64,000 bases of DNA from Sphagnum compactum (taxonomy: Eukaryota): NCBI GenBank assembly GCA_965153455.1, contig OZ234493.1, forward strand, positions 24,480,213 through 24,544,212, given 5' to 3'. Below the pieces are notes generated by a model. It saw only the letters and a list, made by a program, of their open reading frames with translations. It had not been told where the DNA came from and ran no database searches. Below are positions 2,682-64,000 of the stretch, in pieces. Each line of letters starts with the position of its first letter. Position 1 is the stretch's first letter. A program made the position numbers and the translations under genes.

Positions 2682-5318
2682 TCAGGAGTCGGCGGCGGTG
2701 ATGAGCTGAATCCCAGTCCGGACGTCCTCCACGAGACACTCTTGCAAGTAGGGTGCAAGGCCCACGACGGAGATGTCATTGAACTGGGGATCATGCGGAC
2801 ACTCGAACTTCTTCTGCGGCACATGCTGGCAAGTGTCGATGGTTTGTCCTCGGATGCAAGGAGGACCAGTGGGCTCACCGTAGTCGTCTGGATGATCCAC
2901 AAACCATGGAGGTGTTTGCACAAACCATGGCACCAAAGCGCCGTAGGCGTGCGCAACTCCGCCAAAAGTGGACATGGGAGTGACGACGATGTCGTCGGAG
3001 AAGCTGAGTAGAATAATCTCTACTAGCGCTTGTGCATCTTCCTCTACTGTCCACCCTTGCTGGAATTTTTGTGTCAACTGTACCACTGTCACTTTCTCGC
3101 CGTTTGCGGGCGGGTTTCGTAAGTAGTCTAGGGTTAGAGACTTCTCGAAACTGTCATAGAGAGACGCGATGAACACTGTGGTGCGAATTGGAGCAGTTTC
3201 TGTTGTAGTTTTAGTTGTAGCAGCAGTACTACTGTCTGTAGAAGATGTCGAAGAGGATTGGAGTGATCTATCCGCGATGTTTCTGGGTTGTCGATGTTTG
3301 GATCCGGCAGTTGAGGATGTCTGATTTGTTGTAGTCGTGGTGGTGCTCGCGGAAGTGGTATTGACGACCGGCGGCGGGGGAGGAGGAGGAGGAGCCCCTT
3401 GCTTAGGAAGCAAACCGTTGTCCAAAGTGCACTGCTTGATGCGGGATTCCATTCCGTCGTGCAACCTGTCGAAGGATTCAGGCCCGCGGAAGTAGCGAAT
3501 CTGAACACCCAAGCGCCGATCTGCATGATCGGGTTGCATTGCCTCAACGTTTTCGACTGAGCGCCAGACGATATCTGTAGGGAGCATCAAGCTTCGGAGC
3601 AGATGGGTGAGCACCATCCGAGTGGGAAAGAGAGCCTCTAGCGTCGGCCGGAAGATCGGAATGGAGAACAGCTTGGGGATGAGATACTGACAACCCACTA
3701 AACCCACACACGTCACATTGCTCAAGAATCGCTGCTCCGTGGGACAGTAGAATCGGTTATGGGGTTGGAACTGCGTTAAGTCACTCACATCCGTAGCATA
3801 GATCTCGACGTTGTTGCTGCTGCTGTGCAGTAGCTGCTGCGACTCCTCTTCATCGTCTTCTCTGCTGCCGGCAATTGTTGCAGAAGACTCCAAGAAGACA
3901 TCATCGACAGACTCGAAGAAGGCAGAGCCGGGGCCCAGACCAAGGAGTATCGGATGCGCTAGCTTCCAAGTGGAGCCTTCGAAAGGCTCACACATGACAT
4001 CGCTAAGGAGGCTACCAGAAGGAACGAGCAAGACGCGTTGGGTGAGAACCGCATACAGAAAACACGAAGTGGTGAGCAAGATCTTGTTACCCAAGCCCGA
4101 TCCGGGTGTAGGATCACACATCATGAACTTGCAACCAGTGCTTGTATTCCTGTCATGGAAGTACTGCGCCAGATCCCCAATCCTGGTGGTACAAGTGCGA
4201 TGAAGAATCGTGTACTCTCTGAAGATTAGCTCCCACGCAGGATTGGGCTCTACATCTTTAGCGAATTTTCTTCTGGAATATATTCTTGGTAGCTTCTCTC
4301 GAGAATTGCAAGGATTCCTTTCGTGCCATTCCTTCTTGGCCGCTTCACTCAGAGGTTGTACTGCCTTGCCTCCATTCGCTCTTACTGCAGCTGCTCTTAT
4401 ATCCTTGATCAGACCCTCAACACTTGCAGGCAGCTGCTGCTTCGTGGTGGTAGTACTACTATGATCTGCGCCAGTCGAAGACTTGACGTCCTGCTTCCTA
4501 CTCCTGTTTTCACTACCGTTGTCCTGCATTTTATGATCCATTGCAGCTGCGCCTGCTGCTGCAGGCATCTGATCAACGGAGCCTACAAGTACTAGGCCTG
4601 CTGCAGGCAGCTTTCGATTTGCACCTGGATCATTGTGGATCTGAACTACAGCTGCTGGTAGCTTCGTACTACTATTTGCAGCAGAACCTGCATCGTCCTG
4701 CATCTGAACTGCATGAACCGCTGCCGGCTTTGTCGTACTACTATTGGCAACAGAACCACCATTGACCATCTGGACTGCAGCTTCTGCAGCTGGTGGATCG
4801 AAGGACGTAGCTATATTAGCGCCCCGGGATTCATCAGCTGCGGAACCACCATCATCATCAGCTGCTGCACGCAGCAGTGGCAGCTTCATACTAGTTTTTG
4901 CAACAGCAAGATTCACGGTTGTTGCAGCTGCATGATCATCAGCTGTAACAGCTGGTTTGATTCTAGCTTCATGCAGCAGATGATCCGGCCTGCTGGCCGA
5001 AGTCATGATCGAATCTGCTAAGCCGACAGTAATGTCGAAAACATGTATGGGCTGATGATCAATATGTCGCGCCCCCGCGGCCGAAACCGCGGGATCGACT
5101 GGACTATGGTTCATCGCCTTGATCCATAGCAGCAACAACCAAATGAGCACCGTGCCAAAAACCACAGATTTCCACAAAGTTGAAGATCGGATTGAAACTA
5201 TATTGCGGCCACTTGATATTCTGGTGTGATCCACACCTAGTGCACGCTTGTTTAAAGCTGCCGCCTGCAGTATGGCGGTACTAGCTGCTTCCATGGACAG
5301 TCTCTTGATACGAGGCAT
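2682..5318 (-). CDS. Xyloglucan/galactoside 2-alpha-L-fucosyltransferase-like protein (GT37), 878 aa, intronless CDS
   Basis: Long ORF with an N-terminal TM helix (VVFGTVLIWLLLLWI), giving type II Golgi topology. GT37 motifs: SGLGNKIL...FLYAVLTQRVLLV, CEPFEGSTW, RLGVQIRYF, VFIASL, QALVEIILLSFSDDIVVTPMSTFG-VA. A probable 5'UTR intron has its acceptor near 5344. Confidence 0.9.
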   Translation of the reverse strand: MPRIKRLSMEAASTAILQAAALNKRALGVDHTRISSGRNIVSIRSSTLWKSVVFGTVLIWLLLLWIKAMNHSPVDPAVSAAGARHIDHQPIHVFDITVGLADSIMTSASRPDHLLHEARIKPAVTADDHAAATTVNLAVAKTSMKLPLLRAAADDDGGSAADESRGANIATSFDPPAAEAAVQMVNGGSVANSSTTKPAAVHAVQMQDDAGSAANSSTKLPAAVVQIHNDPGANRKLPAAGLVLVGSVDQMPAAAGAAAMDHKMQDNGSENRSRKQDVKSSTGADHSSTTTTKQQLPASVEGLIKDIRAAAVRANGGKAVQPLSEAAKKEWHERNPCNSREKLPRIYSRRKFAKDVEPNPAWELIFREYTILHRTCTTRIGDLAQYFHDRNTSTGCKFMMCDPTPGSGLGNKILLTTSCFLYAVLTQRVLLVPSGSLLSDVMCEPFEGSTWKLAHPILLGLGPGSAFFESVDDVFLESSATIAGSREDDEEESQQLLHSSSNNVEIYATDVSDLTQFQPHNRFYCPTEQRFLSNVTCVGLVGCQYLIPKLFSIPIFRPTLEALFPTRMVLTHLLRSLMLPTDIVWRSVENVEAMQPDHADRRLGVQIRYFRGPESFDRLHDGMESRIKQCTLDNGLLPKQGAPPPPPPPPVVNTTSASTTTTTTNQTSSTAGSKHRQPRNIADRSLQSSSTSSTDSSTAATTKTTTETAPIRTTVFIASLYDSFEKSLTLDYLRNPPANGEKVTVVQLTQKFQQGWTVEEDAQALVEIILLSFSDDIVVTPMSTFGGVAHAYGALVPWFVQTPPWFVDHPDDYGEPTGPPCIRGQTIDTCQHVPQKKFECPHDPQFNDISVVGLAPYLQECLVEDVRTGIQLITAADS

Positions 5319-5964
5319 TTTTATAACTACTACTGTAAGTCCTCTGCAAAATCAACACAAAAACACACGCACACACCCAAAATCATGGATCATGCACACA
5401 CATATATATCCTCATTGATCTCACACTAGATTCTCCAATACAACAAGGTACATGGACTCTTTGAGAGTCACTCAGGTCTAGAGCTCTACTTTGTATGTTC
5501 AAAATTTCACACAAATCTGACAAATTCTCTCAAAAACCTTCTGTCCAGACTGCCAAAAATCATTACATGTATGTACAAATCCATACAGAAATATATGTAT
5601 GTATTCTGTCGCCTCTCTGTCTCTGTCTGTCCCTCTCTTCGTGATCTTCTTCTTAGACTTCCTACACAAGACATTCTAATTGAAAGTCTTACCCTTCTCC
5701 ACTTACTTTCGGGGGCAATCTGCATGGTTGATTGGAGTGTAGAATGTGAAGATCTAGAAGGCCTCATTGAGACCCATGTGCAGCTGATCCATGAGCTAGT
5801 ACCACACCCACCTTGCAGAGCTTGGGAATACTAGTCTGTGGCGCAGCTGAGGACTAGAGAGAAGAAAATCACATTTCGAAACCAACCCAGAAAAGAAATT
5901 TAAAATTTTAAAGAATTGTTGGATCTCAGGAGCTCCTGGAAGAGCTCATGATCTATCTGCAAGC

Positions 5965-7220: not shown

Positions 7221-8445
7221 ACCCCCCACCGCGTAAGCCTAGTCAAGTCATGATAACATTGTTTGCTTCATGCTTTAAAATGGTTAAAGCCGAAGGGTGG
7301 GGAACATATCCAAAATTCAAGGCCAGACCCAGCTACAACCTCATCCTAGGCCTCTTTATTTTGCGAATGCCCCCCATGTTGCGGCCTTACCCAATATGTA
7401 AACAACACTTTGAAAAACTTTCCATGATTGAATTTGGAGAACACCTTATATCCATGAATATCCCTAACAGAGGAGGGATAACATTACACCTACTCCTCAA
7501 GAGTGAGAGGGTCCTTAGGGTTTAGGGTTTGGGTCGACCATCTGACAACGGATCTGCATGTAGTGTGTTTTAGTTCCATGAAGCAAGGCAGGGATCTCTA
7601 CCAGAGCCTTTTAAGACTGTAGCTAGCTGAGGAACTTTATGTGTGTGCATAATTTGGAAGGTTTTACACACAAAAGAATCAGCGGGTCACTGGCACTTTC
7701 TCATCAGACCTAGCAAAATTCAAGTTGAATGTACAGTTCCTTTGCAAAATTTGCTCTGCAATAACAATAAAGATAGAAAAATAATAATGGGAAAAGAGTA
7801 ATAGCAATAAAACAAGGAGTAATAGCTATAAAGAGAGAAGAATAATAATGGAAGAAGAATGGTAATAGAAGTAAGAGAAATAAAGTAATAGGGTACAACT
7901 GCCCATTGTCGATCACTACCTTATCACCGATCGCTTCTTTAGATCTGTCATCTGTGCTTCATTTTGAATGATTTAAAATGTTATGGCAGCATTACCTTAA
8001 GCTTGAGAAGTCATCTTTGAAGTGCAAAGGAAAATGAGTAATTAAAAAATAACAAGAAGAAAAATTAAGCTTTCCAACTCACAAAATGAATGCGTTTTTT
8101 TTTTTTCTTTTTGGACCCCTCTTACTTTCAAAGCTGCTCACTTTCTCATTTCTTATTCATTTTAAATGATTTAAAGTGCTATAAAGGTGTCGCCTTCAGT
8201 TTTACAAATCATCCTTTGAACTCTAATAGTGACACAATAACATACAAGCAATTTTTTGGGTGATTGGGTTTTAGGCTTTATAATCTTTGGTGGTTTTGTT
8301 TTTCGAGTTTTTAACTTTCTTTATTTTGGAGGGCCATAACTTTTTCAATTTTAATATGTTGTTTAACAATTTTTGATGCGCCAGATGCGTCAATAGGAGG
8401 GGTTCAAGGTTTGTTTGGACACCAAAAACAATGGAGCCCTCCACT

Positions 8446-33519: not shown

Positions 33520-35350
33520 TGCACATAGATTGCCACAAACCTGCAGATTTTTCTACTTCAGAGAGGACTACCAGGAGTTGTGTTGATGAGCCCAAATCCA
33601 ATAGTCAGTTTCTCACTATGGTGACACAAATGAGACACCTGTTCTTCTTCCACATCATGCAGAACAAATTTCATACAAGGCACTTACCCCGCATCATGCA
33701 TGAGCCCTGACAATATCTGCACTTCTGCATGAATTTCAATCAATTGGGGGTGGTCTTGATCTTCTACTACAAAGTTATGCACCTCATTATTCACTTCAAT
33801 CCAGGTATGACCCGGCTGTTTCTTCACACCTTTCTCCTTTTTCTGCCATTCAAAATTCTCAAAGAGACGCCTATTGCCAGAAGCAGCACATAACCAGCTG
33901 CATTTTCAGGCTTCATTTCAAGAATTTGTTTGGCAATGTGTTCTGCCATCTCCATAATACCAGGGATTCTGCATGTGCTGAGCAAAGCCATCCATGCAGC
34001 GACATCTGGTCCAAAGGGCATTGCTATGAGCAGATTCTCTGCCTCCTGTAGCTGGCCAGCATGGCCAAGAAGGTCGACCATACAGGTGAAATGTTCCAAT
34101 TTTGCAGAAATCATATAGTCTGTGACCATTGAAACATAGCAGCGCGTGCCTTCATCCACCAAACCTGCATGGCTACAAGCTGACAGCAGACAAATAAAAG
34201 TGATATCATCTGGCTGTACACCTTCTGCACACATCTGTTCAAAATATTTAGGAGCATCCTTACCATGCCCATGCATGGCACATCCTCCCAGTATGGTGGT
34301 CCAAGTTACCACATTTCAAGATGGCAGCTTGTTGAACACACTCCAAGCATCCTCCATGCTTCCACACTTTGCATACATGTCAACCAAGCTACTTCGCACA
34401 GAGACCTCAGACTCACAACCGCTTTGAATCATTTGCTGATGAACATACCTGCCCTCTTCAAGTGCAACTACACTGGCACATGCATTCAGCACCCCCACAA
34501 AAGTGACAGAGTTTGGTGGCACACCCTCCTGTTGCATTTTTTGAAATAGTTCCAATGCCTTCTGCCCTTGCCCACATTGCACATGTCCCAATATCATGGT
34601 GGTCCAAGTGACCACATTGCGAGATGGCATCTTGTTGAAGACTCTCCAAGCCTCCTCAATGCTCCCACATTTTGCATACATGTCAACCAAGCTATTGCAC
34701 ACAAAAACATCAGACTGCAAACCACTTTGAATGATCTGCTGATGAGCACACCTGCCCTCTTCAATTGCAACCACACTGGCACATGCATTCAGCACCCCCA
34801 CAAAAGCAACAGAATCTGGTCGCATACCCTCCTGCTGCATTTATTGAAACAGTTCCAGTGCCTTCTGCCCTTGTCCACATTTCACATGTCCCAGTATCCT
34901 GGCATTCCAAGTGACCACATCTTGAGATGGCATCTTGTCGAACACTCTCCAAGTCTCCTCAATGCTCCCACATTTTGCATACATGTCCACCAAGCTACTT
35001 CCCACAAAGACATCTGACTCACAACCACTTTGAAGGAGCTGCTTATGAACAAGCCTGCCATCTTCAAGTGTCCCTAAACCAGCACATGCCTTAATCACTG
35101 GAACAAAGGTGAATTTGTTAGGTCTCACTCCTTCTCGTTGCATTTGTTGAAAAAGCTGCATCGCCTTCTGTGATTGCCCATCCTTCACATATTTTGTAAG
35201 CTTCTGATTCCATGCAAAAATGTTCAATTGCACTGTGCCTGGTGCCATTGCAGCTATCTCTGATGCCACACACCCATGGTGGGTTTTGTTGGTCCTCAAG
35301 CCAGAGTGCTTCCTGTGTCTTCTTGTGTTTGAAATCCGGATACCTTGCAC
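33520..35350 (-). pseudogene. PLS-class PPR gene with E and truncated DYW domain (RNA-editing factor type), pseudogene
   Basis: Repeated P-L-S motifs (SLVDMYAKCGSIEEAWRVFNKMPSRNVVTW). In-frame stops at 34841-34843 (TAA) and 34316-34318 (TGA). The E domain is deleted and frameshifted after AAGYVLL. The PG box GVKKQPGHTWIEV is followed by HDAG*VP, LCHHSEKL, SPL* and loss of the CxxC/DYW end. Confidence 0.9.
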
Positions 35351-36019
35351 TTGTCTACAACCAGAAAATCCAGATCAAGCTGATCAGTGATGTATTGTCC
35401 ACAGCCCAGGCATAAATGGGATCATAAGAACAGAGAAAGCCGCACTGAACTTCTCAATCAGCATATTGGATTTACCTACCTTCTCAAGCCTACTACTACT
35501 ATCTCACCAGTGCTAAGCACTTGAAAAGAATGTTTAGATGAGGGCAGGATAGCAACTAGGAGAGAGCAACCAGATTGACACCAACAAGAGTATGGCTCCA
35601 GGGACTGCAGAAAACCTTCATTTCAAATGATGTGCTTTGATCACATAGAAGCCACGAGGAGGTCTCGCATTTTTGCATAGATTTTGTAGAACCCTTCCAT
35701 TTGACTGAGAATATATCATTGTAATAAAATCAGGTCAAGATTTTTCGGGAAACAAAACACATATTGTGAGAAGGCAGTACACAGAGAAGAACAACACTGG
35801 AAAGCTTACAATTGAAGTGATCTGTGAGTGCCGCCTCTGTTTCTATTCGGCGCGGTCCGGAAAGAAGTGCGGTGTACTGCGAAAGTTGTTGATGGGTAAA
35901 GTGGAATAGCGGGTGCACACAGACACTTAGGAGCAAGTTCCTCCTCGTGCACCTCCCTCTTCTGCATGAGGTGGTGGAGCAGCTGCTTTTGTGGTTTAGA
36001 AAATAGTTAGATCTTGCAC

Positions 36020-60400: not shown

Positions 60401-62830
60401 GATCTATAGATGGCTTAGATCCTGTAGAACATGTGTTCATTTGTTTAGACGCATCTCATTGTAACGGCTCGGGTGGCTTACATGATAAATTGTGTTGGGG
60501 CTGATCTTGCAACAACTATTGTGACTGAATCACATGATCATCTTGCATGTAATCCAGTAGTGAACACACATTAGGCTAGGAGATAAAAACACAATCCAAT
60601 GTCTATCAACATGCAAAAATAACAGACTACAGAATTGCATGTCTATACTTACACATGAACTAAACATGGAACACCCATATTTAGTTCAATTCAAATTCTT
60701 TTCCTATTTTCACATACTACAGCAACCAAATTAATGTTCTAAACTTCAAACAATTTTGAAAGAGTTAACAATTTAAACTTGTACAACATGCAAAATGCCC
60801 ATGTACATATATAAATTATCTACAAAATTTATAAATATTTCAGCACAATCAATAGTTGATTTTCAAAAAAATTACATTCACCCACAATCTTTTTAATTAT
60901 TGTTGGAATCATAAAGGTATTAAGGTATTGTATGATCATACCCTCCCATACTCCCAATGTCTAATTTTGCAATATCAATGTCCTTCTTCCCTTCTGATGT
61001 GGATGCAGATTTAAATGTATTAGTATTATTCGATTTCAAAAATTTCCACATTTCCTCCATCATATTGGACATCTTCTTTTGGCCACGCATTAACTCATTA
61101 ATGACCTTCTAGTCATCATGGTTTTGTTCCAAGGTTTCAAAACGCACATCAATTTCTAATGTCAAATAATCCCCACTAACATGACCCACATTGCCATTAT
61201 CCAATTGTTCTTCCTCCTATAAAACCACGCCACAAATTCAATTTGACTACAATACATTCTTAGAAACAAATTGATAGTCGACAGTACCTGCATCCTTTAA
61301 ATGTTTAACTACTTCACATAAATTGAAGTTCATCAACAAATCATGAAAATTGCAGCTCTTCTTAAGGTACAATTTACAAAGATCATGCTAGCACGCAAGA
61401 TCTAATATCCAAAAACTAGTTCTAATCTAGTTGCAATCAATCTAATAGACATTAGGGTTCGAAAAAAAATGAAGACAATCCCAAGAATCTAATAAAGAAT
61501 TAACTATCTAACATTAACTAGGGTTTACTTATTTTACTTTGATCTCATATTCCTCTATATTTTCTCGTTTGTGTTTGCTAGTATTCTCTCGTTCACATTC
61601 CGCTTATACCTCCACTAATGTTGTTGGCCGTCCAAGATCTATTGCCTAGAAACCTCATAATTATCCACATTCTATGTTAGTCAGCCACATATGAGTACAA
61701 TCAGAAAGCAACCAAACACATGTTAGAAAACTTGTAAAATAACAAAAATTGTAAAAACAGAGAAAAAAACATACTAATCGTTTTGCAGTTCCAATTTCAC
61801 CTGACCACCTACTGCATTGGCCACTTTTTACATTGGCTTGGGCTTTTGTCATTTGAATTGCTTGCTCTATTTTTGTTTCTTTTTGCAACACAACTTTCAT
61901 TGGATTCTAGTGTGCCTCTAAAACATCTAAAGGTTGCCCTTCACGAGCTTCAATTTTTTTTTTGAGCCATCCATGCCTAGCTTTCAAAATTGATGCCACT
62001 TGATCCTTGACATGTTTAAAGGCTAGCAGATGGTCTAGGTAATGAAACCCATGTTCAAGTGTTTCCTTTATCACTTCCATTTCTTTTGCAGGTTGTTTTC
62101 GTATGTCATCAATGGCAAGGTTTAGTTTTTTTGCATACCCTCGAAGTTATGACAGCTAATGGTTCTTGCCACCACTCATCGGTTTCCCCTTTACATCACA
62201 CTCTACAACAAGAATGGCCTGCTTACCAGTATGTTGAGCTACTTCAATCCCCATTTTCTTCATCACCTTATTTAAAGCTCGATGTCTGACCTTTTGTTCA
62301 GTGCCTTTGGAATGCACATATGATGAAACCACTTGTGAATCTAGCTTAGAAGACAAATCTCCAGCTGACGTATAGTCAACATCCTTACCTTGTGTTGTCT
62401 TCGGGTGCTGACAAAAACTTGGGAATGTTGACATTATTGGAGTAGTATGATTAACATCTAGTTATGTACAAATGGTAGACATTTGCTGCCATGATGAAAC
62501 TTGGTTAGGATATGATACAAGTGTTGAACCTAGTATAGATGTGACTGTTGAATTTGCAAACTAAAGATCAGGCATTTGTTGGGATGTAGTTGGGTCCCTA
62601 CATTGGATGCAAACTAAACATCAGCATTCCTAATACGACGTACGTGGGTCCCTACATTGGAAAAATTCCTCGCTTTTCTTCCTGCCTGCTGTGAAGAATA
62701 TCCGTCCTTGACTTTCCTCAGCTCTGATCTTCGCACAAATTTTCTTCATCCCTGCCTGCCGTGACGAATCTGTCGTGGACTTTCCTGAGCTCGTGCCCTC
62801 GCCTTCTTCTTCTTCAGCTACATCTGCCAT
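57408..62830 (-). mobile_element. Degenerate CACTA (En/Spm)-like DNA transposon
   Basis: CACTACTACAAA terminus at 57408, then ~1.2 kb of degenerate subterminal repeats (ATGACTAA / ATGTGGCATGTC). Decayed minus-strand ORF pieces resemble CACTA TnpA-like proteins (ECDVKGKPMSG...LRGYAKKL at 62240-62100; CAVG...CH...YIIVAI...LPYP at 58882-59118). Confidence 0.55.
59507..60294 (-). pseudogene. FCP1/NIF-homology HAD phosphatase remnant within the CACTA-like element
   Basis: LLVLDVNGLL (motif I variant), GVHEFFRMCSTKFDI..WSS and PHNTLLIDDCPFKCIGN; split across frames by a frameshift. Confidence 0.75.
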
Positions 62831-62928
62831 TGTTCTCACACACGCAAGAAAAATCAACAACCGCAATGGTCATGGTCCAGTTCTCGAATTCTTATCCGAG
62901 ACGACACTTCCAGCTAGAAAGGACAGTC

Positions 62929-63409
62929 ATGGGTATTATCGTTCGATATCTGCTCATGCTCGCCGCGGCGAGCTTTCTGGCCGTTGCCAAGCCAGTACTC
63001 CGGCTTCAAGCTGGAAGACTACAATTTCACCGACATAATCAACGGCGACGTTTGCATCGTCGGGGGCGGCTCGAGTGCCACCTATGCAGCCATCCGCCTA
63101 CGCGACTTCGGCAAGAGTGTTGTTGTAGTGGAACACAAGGACCGCATGGGAGGACATACACAGACTTATACAGATCCCCAGACCGGAGGTACAGTCGACA
63201 CCGGGGTGCTGGTCTTTCATAATTTCGACATCGTCAAGAACTATTTCAAGCGCTTCAACATCCCGCTCGTGACGGTGAACGGTTCCAGCCCTGGCCTGAC
63301 AAACAAATATGTGGACTTGCGCACAGGGAAGGAATTGGCGGGTTACGTGCCGTCGGACCCTACCGCGGCTCTGGTCGGGTACGCTGCACAACTCGCGAAG
63401 TACCCATAG
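62929..63409 (+). pseudogene. Fungal-type secreted FAD-dependent oxidoreductase (flavin amine oxidase / CpaO-like) 5' fragment, frameshifted and truncated
   Basis: Signal-peptide frame MGIIVRYLLMLAAASFLAVA from ATG 62929. Removing one A at 62989-62990 joins it to SQYSGFKLEDYNFTDIINGDVCIVGGGSSATYAAIRLRDFGKSVVVVEHKDRMGGHTQTY (Rossmann GxGxxA plus GG motif). It ends abruptly at AKYP. Confidence 0.75.
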
Positions 63410-64000
63410 TGTAAGCAACAAAATATAAGGGTCTTTGAATAAAAGGACTAACAAGTAGATGATTTTCTAAGGATGATAAATAAAAAATATGGTACATTAT
63501 TTTTTAATTCTTATTCACATGAACTTCAAAACCTAAACTGTTATAATCATATTTTCAAAAAATATTTGCAAATACTTGAATTGAACCTAAAATTTGTGGT
63601 AATTCAAAAAATAAAGTTGAAGTACTTGAAAGTAGGTGAAATATTTTTGCAAGTATTTGGTTTTTTTTTTCAAGCACCTCAATATTGATGTGGTGAACAT
63701 TTTAGTATAAGTATTTTGGTTAATATAATTTGTTTTCATATCTAAAATCATCCCCAACCTTCTGAAAAGTAACATTATTGTTGGGGATACTTTTGGGGTA
63801 TTATTTCAAGTTCAAATGATATGAGACAAATTGTTTTGAAAAGCTAAAGGGAGGCTAGAAATGCCCATGAAAAAACTAAGGATTTCATTTCTTTTGAAAT
63901 GCTAGAGAAAGGTTAAAACTTAGAAGTTTAGAAAATTGTTTTTTTCTTGTTTTCAAGTAGAAAACTTGAGGTAAAAGCATTTACAAAATATTTTACTTAT

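Follow-up and report, generated by a model that had tools for sequence, protein, structure and literature searches.

Results

The locus

The window (the whole stretch of DNA that was analysed, 64,000 nucleotides from Sphagnum compactum) carries open reading frames for a xyloglucan fucosyltransferase (XG_FTase), a PPR protein and a DDT/WSD protein, which bears out the plant DNA setting given by an earlier reading of the letters alone (the sequence-only reading). Toward its right-hand end, at 62929-63409, lies a fragment of a gene for a FAD oxidoreductase of fungal type, preceded by an upstream region common to other Sphagnum genes and followed by AT-rich DNA. The features of this region are the following.

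62555-62661, + strand: two direct-repeat units of ~53 bp each (families D1 and D4 of the repeat search), at the left edge of the paralogue-shared segment
62637-62661, + strand: the second repeat unit, where homology to most paralogous loci starts
62637-62928, + strand: upstream region (promoter and 5' leader) common to the Sphagnum paralogues; identity to the paralogue L001 is 94.6% over 62643-63408
62866, + strand: in-frame upstream ATG, the start in some gene models (MVMVQFSN...)
62929-62981, + strand: start codon and signal-peptide codons in frame 1 (MGIIVRYLLMLAAASFLA...), from comparison with P0001 and P0004
62982-62988, + strand: site of an 11-bp deletion, where one CGTTG(C/T)C direct-repeat copy is left and frame 1 passes into frame 2, from paralogue alignments
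62984-63406, + strand: 141 codons of the N-terminal FAD-binding (Rossmann) part in frame 2, the GxGxxG motif reading GGGSSA
63407-63409, + strand: TAG stop made by the breakpoint, from paralogue and repeat alignments
63407-64000, + strand: AT-rich repeat-derived DNA in place of the remainder of the gene (25.9% GC, no CpG)

Tandem Repeats Finder reported nothing in 62300-64000, the ~53-bp repeat being seen by another repeat search only, and self-blast of the tail and the upstream region gave no second copy of either within the window. For 9 of the 11 paralogous loci that reach the upstream region, the blastn left limit falls at 62637-62662. Residues 1-41 of P0002, a full-length protein of 492 aa, align by tblastn to 62866-62988 at 95% identity.

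The fragment has a GC content of 55.5% and 42 CpG dinucleotides (CpG observed/expected 1.13), and the composition changes abruptly at both of its edges. The 591 bases on its 3' side have 25.9% GC and not a single CpG, and the entire window has 37.5% GC. A GC content of at least 0.555 is found in 4 of 3176 sliding 481-nt windows, two of these four being the fragment, and 42 CpG are reached by one of the 3176, the fragment itself. Its GC3 is 0.70, and its CpG observed/expected ratio compares with 0.15-0.80 in host open reading frames. The hand counts of the sequence-only reading were exact (56.0% GC over 63061-63360 and 26.7% over 63421-63480), and its description of the fragment as CpG-rich was accurate. 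A composition so unlike that of host genes would fit a young arrival, as would an intronless copy of a fungal-type family, and recent integration of fungal DNA directly at this site was the main explanation offered by that reading; but L001, an intact paralogue, does not differ from the fragment in composition.

The enzyme family

The fragment matches the Pfam families NAD_binding_8 (PF13450; E 8.5e-13, 48.8 bits against a cut-off of 21.9) and Amino_oxidase (PF01593; E 6.1e-10, 39.4 bits against a cut-off of 19.8), the latter over profile positions 6-93 of 443 only. Among solved structures its best matches are 9kp8 (E 1.7e-18) and 9vex (E 4.8e-18), other amine oxidases following at E 2.5e-7 or worse, so that the likeness to beta-cyclopiazonate dehydrogenase (CpaO) noted in the sequence-only reading holds. 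With CpaO, PMC13003489 defines a new subfamily of flavin amine oxidases in which the FAD is attached covalently to His373 (8-alpha-N1-histidyl); it names His165, Tyr283, Trp317 and Asp412 as the substrate-anchoring residues and gives the FAD motif as GxGxxG(x)17E. The fragment matches only residues 3-105 of the 431 of CpaO. It keeps the acidic residue 17 positions 3' of the motif, the Glu of VVVVEH, and the motif itself reads GGGSSA in the window as against GGGS(S/T)G in all three paralogues compared. The position of His373 lies beyond the truncation, and those of His165, Tyr283, Trp317 and Asp412 are likewise all absent from the fragment, which lacks the complete substrate-binding and C-terminal FAD-domain segments. 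A tblastn search of the whole 64-kb window with four family proteins yielded no further gene piece or exon.

The fragment alone cannot show where the family belongs; it is the full-length match of an intact paralogue that places the family near CpaO. Residues 36-466 of P0004 (470 aa) align to residues 3-426 of the 431 of CpaO with an E value of 1.1e-83. Read by eye, the alignment sets a His of P0004 opposite His373 (FSSHTP in P0004, FASHTP in CpaO), and Tyr, Tyr, Tyr and His opposite His165, Tyr283, Trp317 and Asp412, with one of the four kept. With three of the four substrate-anchoring residues changed, P0004 is likely to act on a different substrate, to judge from the alignment. CpaO and the intact Sphagnum paralogue thus have in common a secreted or N-terminal leader architecture, the GxGxxG(x)17E motif and the aligned His373. 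Unlike CpaO, the fragment is without His373 and both substrate domains and has Ala for the third Gly of the motif; the host is a moss, and no CPA gene cluster was seen. The family is CpaO-like, but we do not class it as a beta-cyclopiazonate dehydrogenase.

Two lesions and the anatomy of the break

Two lesions disrupt the coding sequence. In the first, the 11 bp between two CGTTG repeats, just 3' of the signal-peptide core, are missing from the window; the deletion is present in none of the seven distinct paralogous loci that were aligned (L001, L004, L005, L009, L010, L025 and L029). The "+1" frameshift that had been read after the signal peptide is therefore real and corresponds to this deletion. 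From the ATG at 62929, frame 1 now gives a 97-aa out-of-frame product with its stop at 63220-63222. The second lesion is the truncation, which had been put at about 159 codons: family homology stops after ...CCATA at 63408, inside a Tyr codon (TAC), at residue 163 of P0004 and residue 184 of P0002. The TA at 63407-63408 is a 2-bp microhomology of gene and repeat, and the G that completes the TAG comes from the repeat. From 63407 onward the tail is 80% identical, in inverted orientation, to positions 7648-8222 of the locus L007, and parts of it stand at 17-100 times single-copy depth in three runs. Copies of the repeat in L007, and loose ends of contigs from the public run X1 that fit from 63406/63407, run leftward past the junction; the break accordingly lies inside the repeat.

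A different reading of the same junction is that the gene was interrupted or rearranged, the repeat being an insertion or one end of an inversion and the 3' two-thirds of the gene lying beyond position 64000. Because the window stops there, only 591 bp past the break, and because the tail resembles, inverted, DNA situated in L007 about 6.4 kb 3' of a full-length paralogue, this reading has some appeal, as it does from the GT directly 3' of the last homologous base (63409-63410). Against it stand the repeat copies that extend leftward over the junction, which leave no clean-insertion terminus, the presence of the repeat in only one of the six paralogous loci whose downstream sequence extends for 6.4 kb or more, and the lack of any 3' part in the 64 kb seen. 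We consider an interrupted gene unlikely, and it would in any case still be a pseudogene through the 11-bp deletion. An intron at the break, suggested by the same GT and by a GTAAGC two bases on, was set aside as a rescue of intactness, since the full-length paralogues are all intronless, the 11-bp deletion breaks the frame and the junction lies inside the repeat. Insertion of a 770-bp gene piece into a copy of the repeat was also rejected: the window left of 62637 is unlike the leftward continuation of the repeat.

The substitutions point to relaxed constraint on this copy. The dN/dS ratio between the window and L001 is 0.71, compared with 0.24-0.34 for three pairs of intact paralogues. When changes were polarised, the window branch carried eight nonsynonymous and one synonymous and the L001 branch two and three, with four ambiguous, all of them small counts. 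One of the nonsynonymous changes on the window branch is that of the third Gly of GxGxxG to Ala.

Relatives in Sphagnum

Intact relatives of the fragment occur in several peat mosses. Among the best 120 of 247 protein matches, the top ten are Sphagnum or Sphagnum-like proteins, full-length at 470-492 aa and 80-89% identical to the fragment; the rows that carry a Sphagnum name are P0004, P0010, P0068 and P0078. Full-length entries of S. magellanicum, S. fallax, S. jensenii and S. compactum are located on contigs of 18-37 Mb, and the cluster of P0002, the second-best match, also includes entries of S. troendelagicum, S. balticum and S. tenellum on contigs of 23-24 Mb. At least eight named Sphagnum species have the family in multiple copies. 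In the same best 120 of 247 matches, rows of fungal type show 55-66% identity to the fragment, and the non-Sphagnum rows that carry an organism name are eight fungi and one bacterium at 52-63%. The fungal matches include Geoglossum, Glutinoglossum, Chaenotheca, lichen-forming fungi and Leotiomycetes. Among the organism-named rows of the best 120 of 247 and the best 120 of 943 matches, most rows being nameless, there was no plant other than Sphagnum.

At the DNA level, a scan of metagenome contigs gave 33 loci, 17 of them Sphagnum-type. Sixteen Sphagnum-type loci match the window, and they do so solely within about 62637-63408. The closest is L001, at 94.6% identity over 780 aligned columns. 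Its upstream flank has no match to the window, so L001 is a paralogue at a different locus; the low dS between the two (0.056, with 0.19-0.26 to deeper paralogues) marks the window copy as a comparatively late duplicate within the family. L001 to L006 are uninterrupted, intronless open reading frames, that of L001 running to 1476 nt and 492 codons, and the intronless state that the sequence-only reading ascribed to the fragment is thereby upheld for its nearest full-length copy.

Decay is also seen in other Sphagnum-type loci. L008 and L017 are cut on their 5' side within the GGGS motif, L017 having an internal deletion as well. In L010 and L011 the signal peptide is disrupted by a different frameshift, of 2 bp, and a stretch of 2.5 kb interrupts the gene close to its 3' end; stops occur in L029 and L009.

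The window and the Sphagnum paralogues also have in common ~290 bp of non-coding, plant-side DNA 5' of the ATG, and this shared upstream DNA excludes a fresh arrival from a fungus. Recent integration is opposed as well by the identities, the nearest fungal proteins reaching only about 55-66% as against 80-89% for Sphagnum proteins and 94.6% at the DNA level for L001.

Residence in the moss genome

An abrupt shift in composition at both edges could also arise where a fungal contaminant had been fused to plant DNA in the assembly. Public sequencing runs speak strongly against such a chimera. Contigs of 6898 nt (X1), 2980 nt (X3) and 3711 nt (X9), from three separate public runs, lead from single-copy upstream DNA into the fragment as far as 62970-62977. 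Unitig depths over the fragment equal those of the flanks, both in X1 (32.1, 29.9, 27.6, 23.7 and 25.8) and in X3 (47.3, 49.5, 48.2, 46.4 and 44.1), as the read-depth check proposed with the sequence-only reading had anticipated for integrated DNA. Of the sampled words, 64-96% occur in DNA runs that come from three studies of organism A. A chimeric assembly is thus extremely improbable, and linkage to host genes together with host-like depth makes the fragment a resident of the moss genome.

The 11-bp deletion is present in X1, X3 and X9, whose contigs cover 62952-63157 without gaps, and the same frameshifted copy recurs in another study of organism A and in the related organism B, for which the share of sampled words is 47%. 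Its presence in a second, related species is a further argument against recent integration. Organism B has in addition a 2-bp deletion at 63167, so that decay of the copy had begun before organisms A and B separated. The break itself is less widely covered. A contig from X1 spans 63133-63456 with 0 differences and is the only listed contig across 63408, X1 possibly being the source of the window itself; none of the listed X3 pieces crosses 63408, and the contig of organism B fits up to 63408 and is then followed by 59 unlike letters. On these contigs the break could be of any age relative to the split of the two organisms, and it may or may not be shared between them.

Phylogeny and the donor

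Two trees were built, a quick one with 66 rows and a careful, unrooted one with 44, of which 18 lack an organism name. All Sphagnum rows and the window form one clade (SH-aLRT 100 in the quick tree, 100/100 in the careful tree), within which the window falls in a subclade with P0002, S. jensenii and S. troendelagicum, supported at 100/99. This nested position again argues against recent integration, which we regard, in sum, as very improbable.

In the careful tree the sister of the Sphagnum clade is formed by the Leotiomycetes Phlyctema and Chlorociboria, with weak support (66/80); next outward come a clade of six nameless rows and then Lecanoromycetes (70/93). Support for the exact fungal sister is weak throughout this part of the tree (66/80, 54/60 and 70/93). 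The Sphagnum clade thus branches among ascomycete rows, in keeping with the nesting that the sequence-only reading had predicted, in an unrooted tree with a weakly supported sister. Among the matches listed, the closest relatives outside Sphagnum are uncharacterised secreted ascomycete flavoproteins annotated as "amine oxidase domain-containing" in Leotiomycetes, Lecanoromycetes and Geoglossomycetes. They agree with the Sphagnum family in length (about 465-480 aa) and in Pfam content; they differ in being 55-66% identical to the fragment, the Sphagnum copies having their own upstream region and a separate 100/100 clade. A single transfer from a fungus to Sphagnum, before the divergence of the sampled species, would account for this placement.

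The donor could instead have been an actinobacterium, since full-length proteins of Actinoplanes, Micromonosporaceae, Mangrovihabitans and Promicromonospora match the fungal ones in identity (58-60%). In the tree, however, the actinobacteria form a separate clade (100/99) beside Piccolia and Geoglossomycetes, set apart from Sphagnum by branches with 96/81 and 99/92 support. Forcing Sphagnum together with the actinobacteria, a group picked after the tree had been seen, was rejected by the AU test (delta lnL 45.3, p-AU 0.0009). Of the Atlas feature clusters, the best four (scores 0.99) consist of 97-100% Eukaryota and are overwhelmingly from Ascomycota, their commonest phylum; in the largest of them the phylum is known for 1243 of 1406 members. 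We therefore hold an actinobacterial donor to be improbable.

Transcription of the remnant

Nine polyA RNA reads of organism A, at 99% identity or better, cover 62810-63419; the run comprises 14,688 million letters, of which ~12% was analysed. The cover starts in the bin 62810-62870, with the first mate on the minus strand. At 63075 and 63224 the reads have C, in agreement with organism B, and for this reason they probably derive from this very locus in another genotype, not from the paralogue with 94.6% identity. The remnant is, on the evidence of these nine reads, not transcriptionally silent, and the retained promoter probably still yields a low-level transcript. Three of the nine lie only partly on the stretch and none extends past 63420, both of which would fit splicing away from the junction and so count toward an interrupted gene.

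Conceivably the remnant serves a new purpose, coding for a basic, Cys/Arg-rich secreted peptide of 97 aa (62929 to 63220-63222) or acting through a regulatory or chimeric transcript. In favour of this, the remnant keeps an intact start codon, signal peptide and upstream region, polyA reads fall on it and its CpG content is undecayed. The 2-bp deletion of organism B, though, lies inside this reading frame, so that the frame-1 product is not conserved, and the reads number only nine from the portion of the run just given. A new role seems to us a slim prospect.

Discussion

The fragment is very probably a non-functional 5' remnant of an apparently Sphagnum-specific, ascomycete-derived, CpaO-like gene family, disabled by two lesions. 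The history that we propose for it is the following. A gene of an ascomycete would have passed to an ancestor of Sphagnum before the sampled species split, and the family would then have evolved through duplication and decay. Its intronless genes are predicted to encode secreted FAD oxidoreductases akin to CpaO, within the flavin amine oxidase superfamily. The window copy derives from the subtype of P0002, S. jensenii and S. troendelagicum, with a dS of about 0.06 to L001, and what is left of it is the upstream region of ~290 bp and the first ~160 codons. Of the two lesions, the presumably earlier one is an 11-bp deletion, through slippage or microhomology between the CGTTG repeats, that shifted the frame just past the signal peptide. 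The other is an illegitimate-recombination breakpoint at 63408 with its 2-bp microhomology, by which codon ~163 was joined to an internal point of a dispersed AT-rich repeat, creating the TAG.

In this combination of a frameshift deletion, a stop codon made by the junction, truncation, raised dN/dS and intact paralogues elsewhere, the fragment resembles unprocessed (duplicated) pseudogenes, which likewise keep the upstream region of their parents and show a nonsynonymous excess. It differs from them in no basic way, the sole unusual point being a parent family derived from fungi. Birth and death of copies continue in the family, and the fragment is one result of this turnover.

The sequence-only reading had left two ways open: fungal DNA integrated recently, or a duplicated piece of a gene acquired earlier and intact elsewhere. 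Its view that the gene is of fungal type in origin stands, as the family branches among ascomycetes; its view that the integration was recent does not, Sphagnum genes being far nearer to the fragment than those of fungi and occurring in at least eight named species of the genus. The second of its options is the one that the evidence supports. There is a lesson for triage here: a motif of donor type and a foreign composition are, by themselves, no sign of recent transfer.

Transfers from fungi to bryophytes are a recognised source of lineage-specific genes. We found no paper that names this family in Sphagnum; the large catalogues of horizontally transferred genes (HGT) in bryophytes lay outside that search and may list it. 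The main text of PMC12513842 has 0 occurrences of "amine oxidase" or "oxidoreductase", and the family was not found in that text. That main text describes HGT genes of bryophytes in general as intronless, lineage-restricted and microbial-type, with repeat-rich surroundings. The Sphagnum family is alike in these respects, its restriction to the lineage being judged from the organism-named matches; the object in the window differs from the genes of that account in being a decayed copy and not a working acquired gene.

A broader proposal can be put forward tentatively, as one that we would sooner doubt than assert. Sphagnum may possess a genus-wide, expanded family, not yet specifically described, of secreted, probably covalent-FAD flavoenzymes of the CpaO subfamily. 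It might stem from a single donor similar to Leotiomycetes or Lecanoromycetes, retain a fungal-like composition (GC3 of about 0.7, CpG undepleted), have a conserved promoter of its own and turn over fast by partial duplication and decay, the window holding a still-transcribed relic. If this were true, the intact members would be candidates for the extracellular oxidative chemistry of peat mosses.

The fragment itself is an ordinary pseudogene that needs no special explanation, and it is of low interest beside the family behind it, which is of moderate interest. Its value is as a pointer to a fungal-type flavoenzyme gene that appears to have been long resident in the chromosomes of peat mosses, where it has multiplied and is still being duplicated and destroyed. 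A Sphagnum-wide family of secreted oxidases, akin to a covalent-FAD alkaloid cyclase, would make a sensible subject for research into the extracellular chemistry of these mosses.

Composition and neighbouring genes

The CpaO-like FAD oxidoreductase family of Sphagnum differs in composition from the host genes around it. Both the frameshifted 5' remnant of the fungal-derived gene (window 62929-63409) and its nearest intact paralogue, on a metagenome contig (L001 6060-7535), have a ratio of observed to expected CpG of about 1.1 and a third-codon-position GC of 0.70-0.73, whereas the CpG ratio in the host open reading frames of the window is 0.15-0.80. The family, pseudogene included, seems to have escaped the CpG depletion of neighbouring genes. 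The other genes of the window include the following reading frames:

2682-5351, minus strand, uninterrupted open reading frame of 889 codons, encoding a xyloglucan fucosyltransferase domain (E 6e-52)
33824-34315, 34316-34840 and 34841-35374, minus strand, three abutting stop-to-stop open reading frames in one frame

The fucosyltransferase frame, with 51.6% GC and a CpG ratio of 0.80, forms the window's other GC-rich island. The latter two of the three abutting frames (34316-34840 and 34841-35374) have strong PPR matches, and the whole (33824-35374) resembles a PPR gene interrupted by in-frame stop codons, whether or not it is a pseudogene.

Repeats and partial copies

Two pairs of direct repeats lie upstream of the remnant:

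62555-62661, direct-repeat pair with a unit of about 53 bp, the second unit marking the left limit of homology to the paralogues
62681-62769, 19-nt motif CCTGCCTGC.GTGA.GAAT, directly repeated at a spacing of 70 bp

The repeated 19-nt motif is common to the paralogues, with one copy missing in locus L005. Two other Sphagnum-type metagenome contigs carry family copies that are cut at the 5' end exactly inside the GGGS motif (L008 1-115 and L017 1-84). Since an identical, unrelated sequence precedes both, these partial copies are of a second kind, independent of the remnant.

The AT-rich repeat to which the remnant is fused (63407-64000) is also found, inverted, at L007 7648-8222, where it lies downstream of a full-length paralogue at a distance of about 6.4 kb. 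The other five paralogous loci whose downstream DNA extends for 6.4 kb or more lack it. At a copy number of roughly 17-100, the repeat would not be expected to turn up near a second family member when the DNA sampled amounts to only about 150 kb. Its presence there could be a sign of a local inversion or of a larger duplicated unit.

Relatives of the family

Four actinobacterial homologues (P0114, P0275, P0309 and P0315) form a clade with unnamed metagenome proteins (support 100/99), nested in the tree beside ascomycete sequences from Piccolia and Geoglossomycetes. This placement points to a possible further transfer between kingdoms in the CpaO-like family, the second one, in either direction. 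Another, tight clade of unnamed proteins (P0012, P0014, P0285, P0291, P0298 and P0305; support 100/100) adjoins the group made up of Sphagnum and Leotiomycete sequences, and some of its members occur on many Logan contigs and also on NCBI contigs longer than 1 Mb. The taxon of this clade would sharpen the inference of the donor to Sphagnum.
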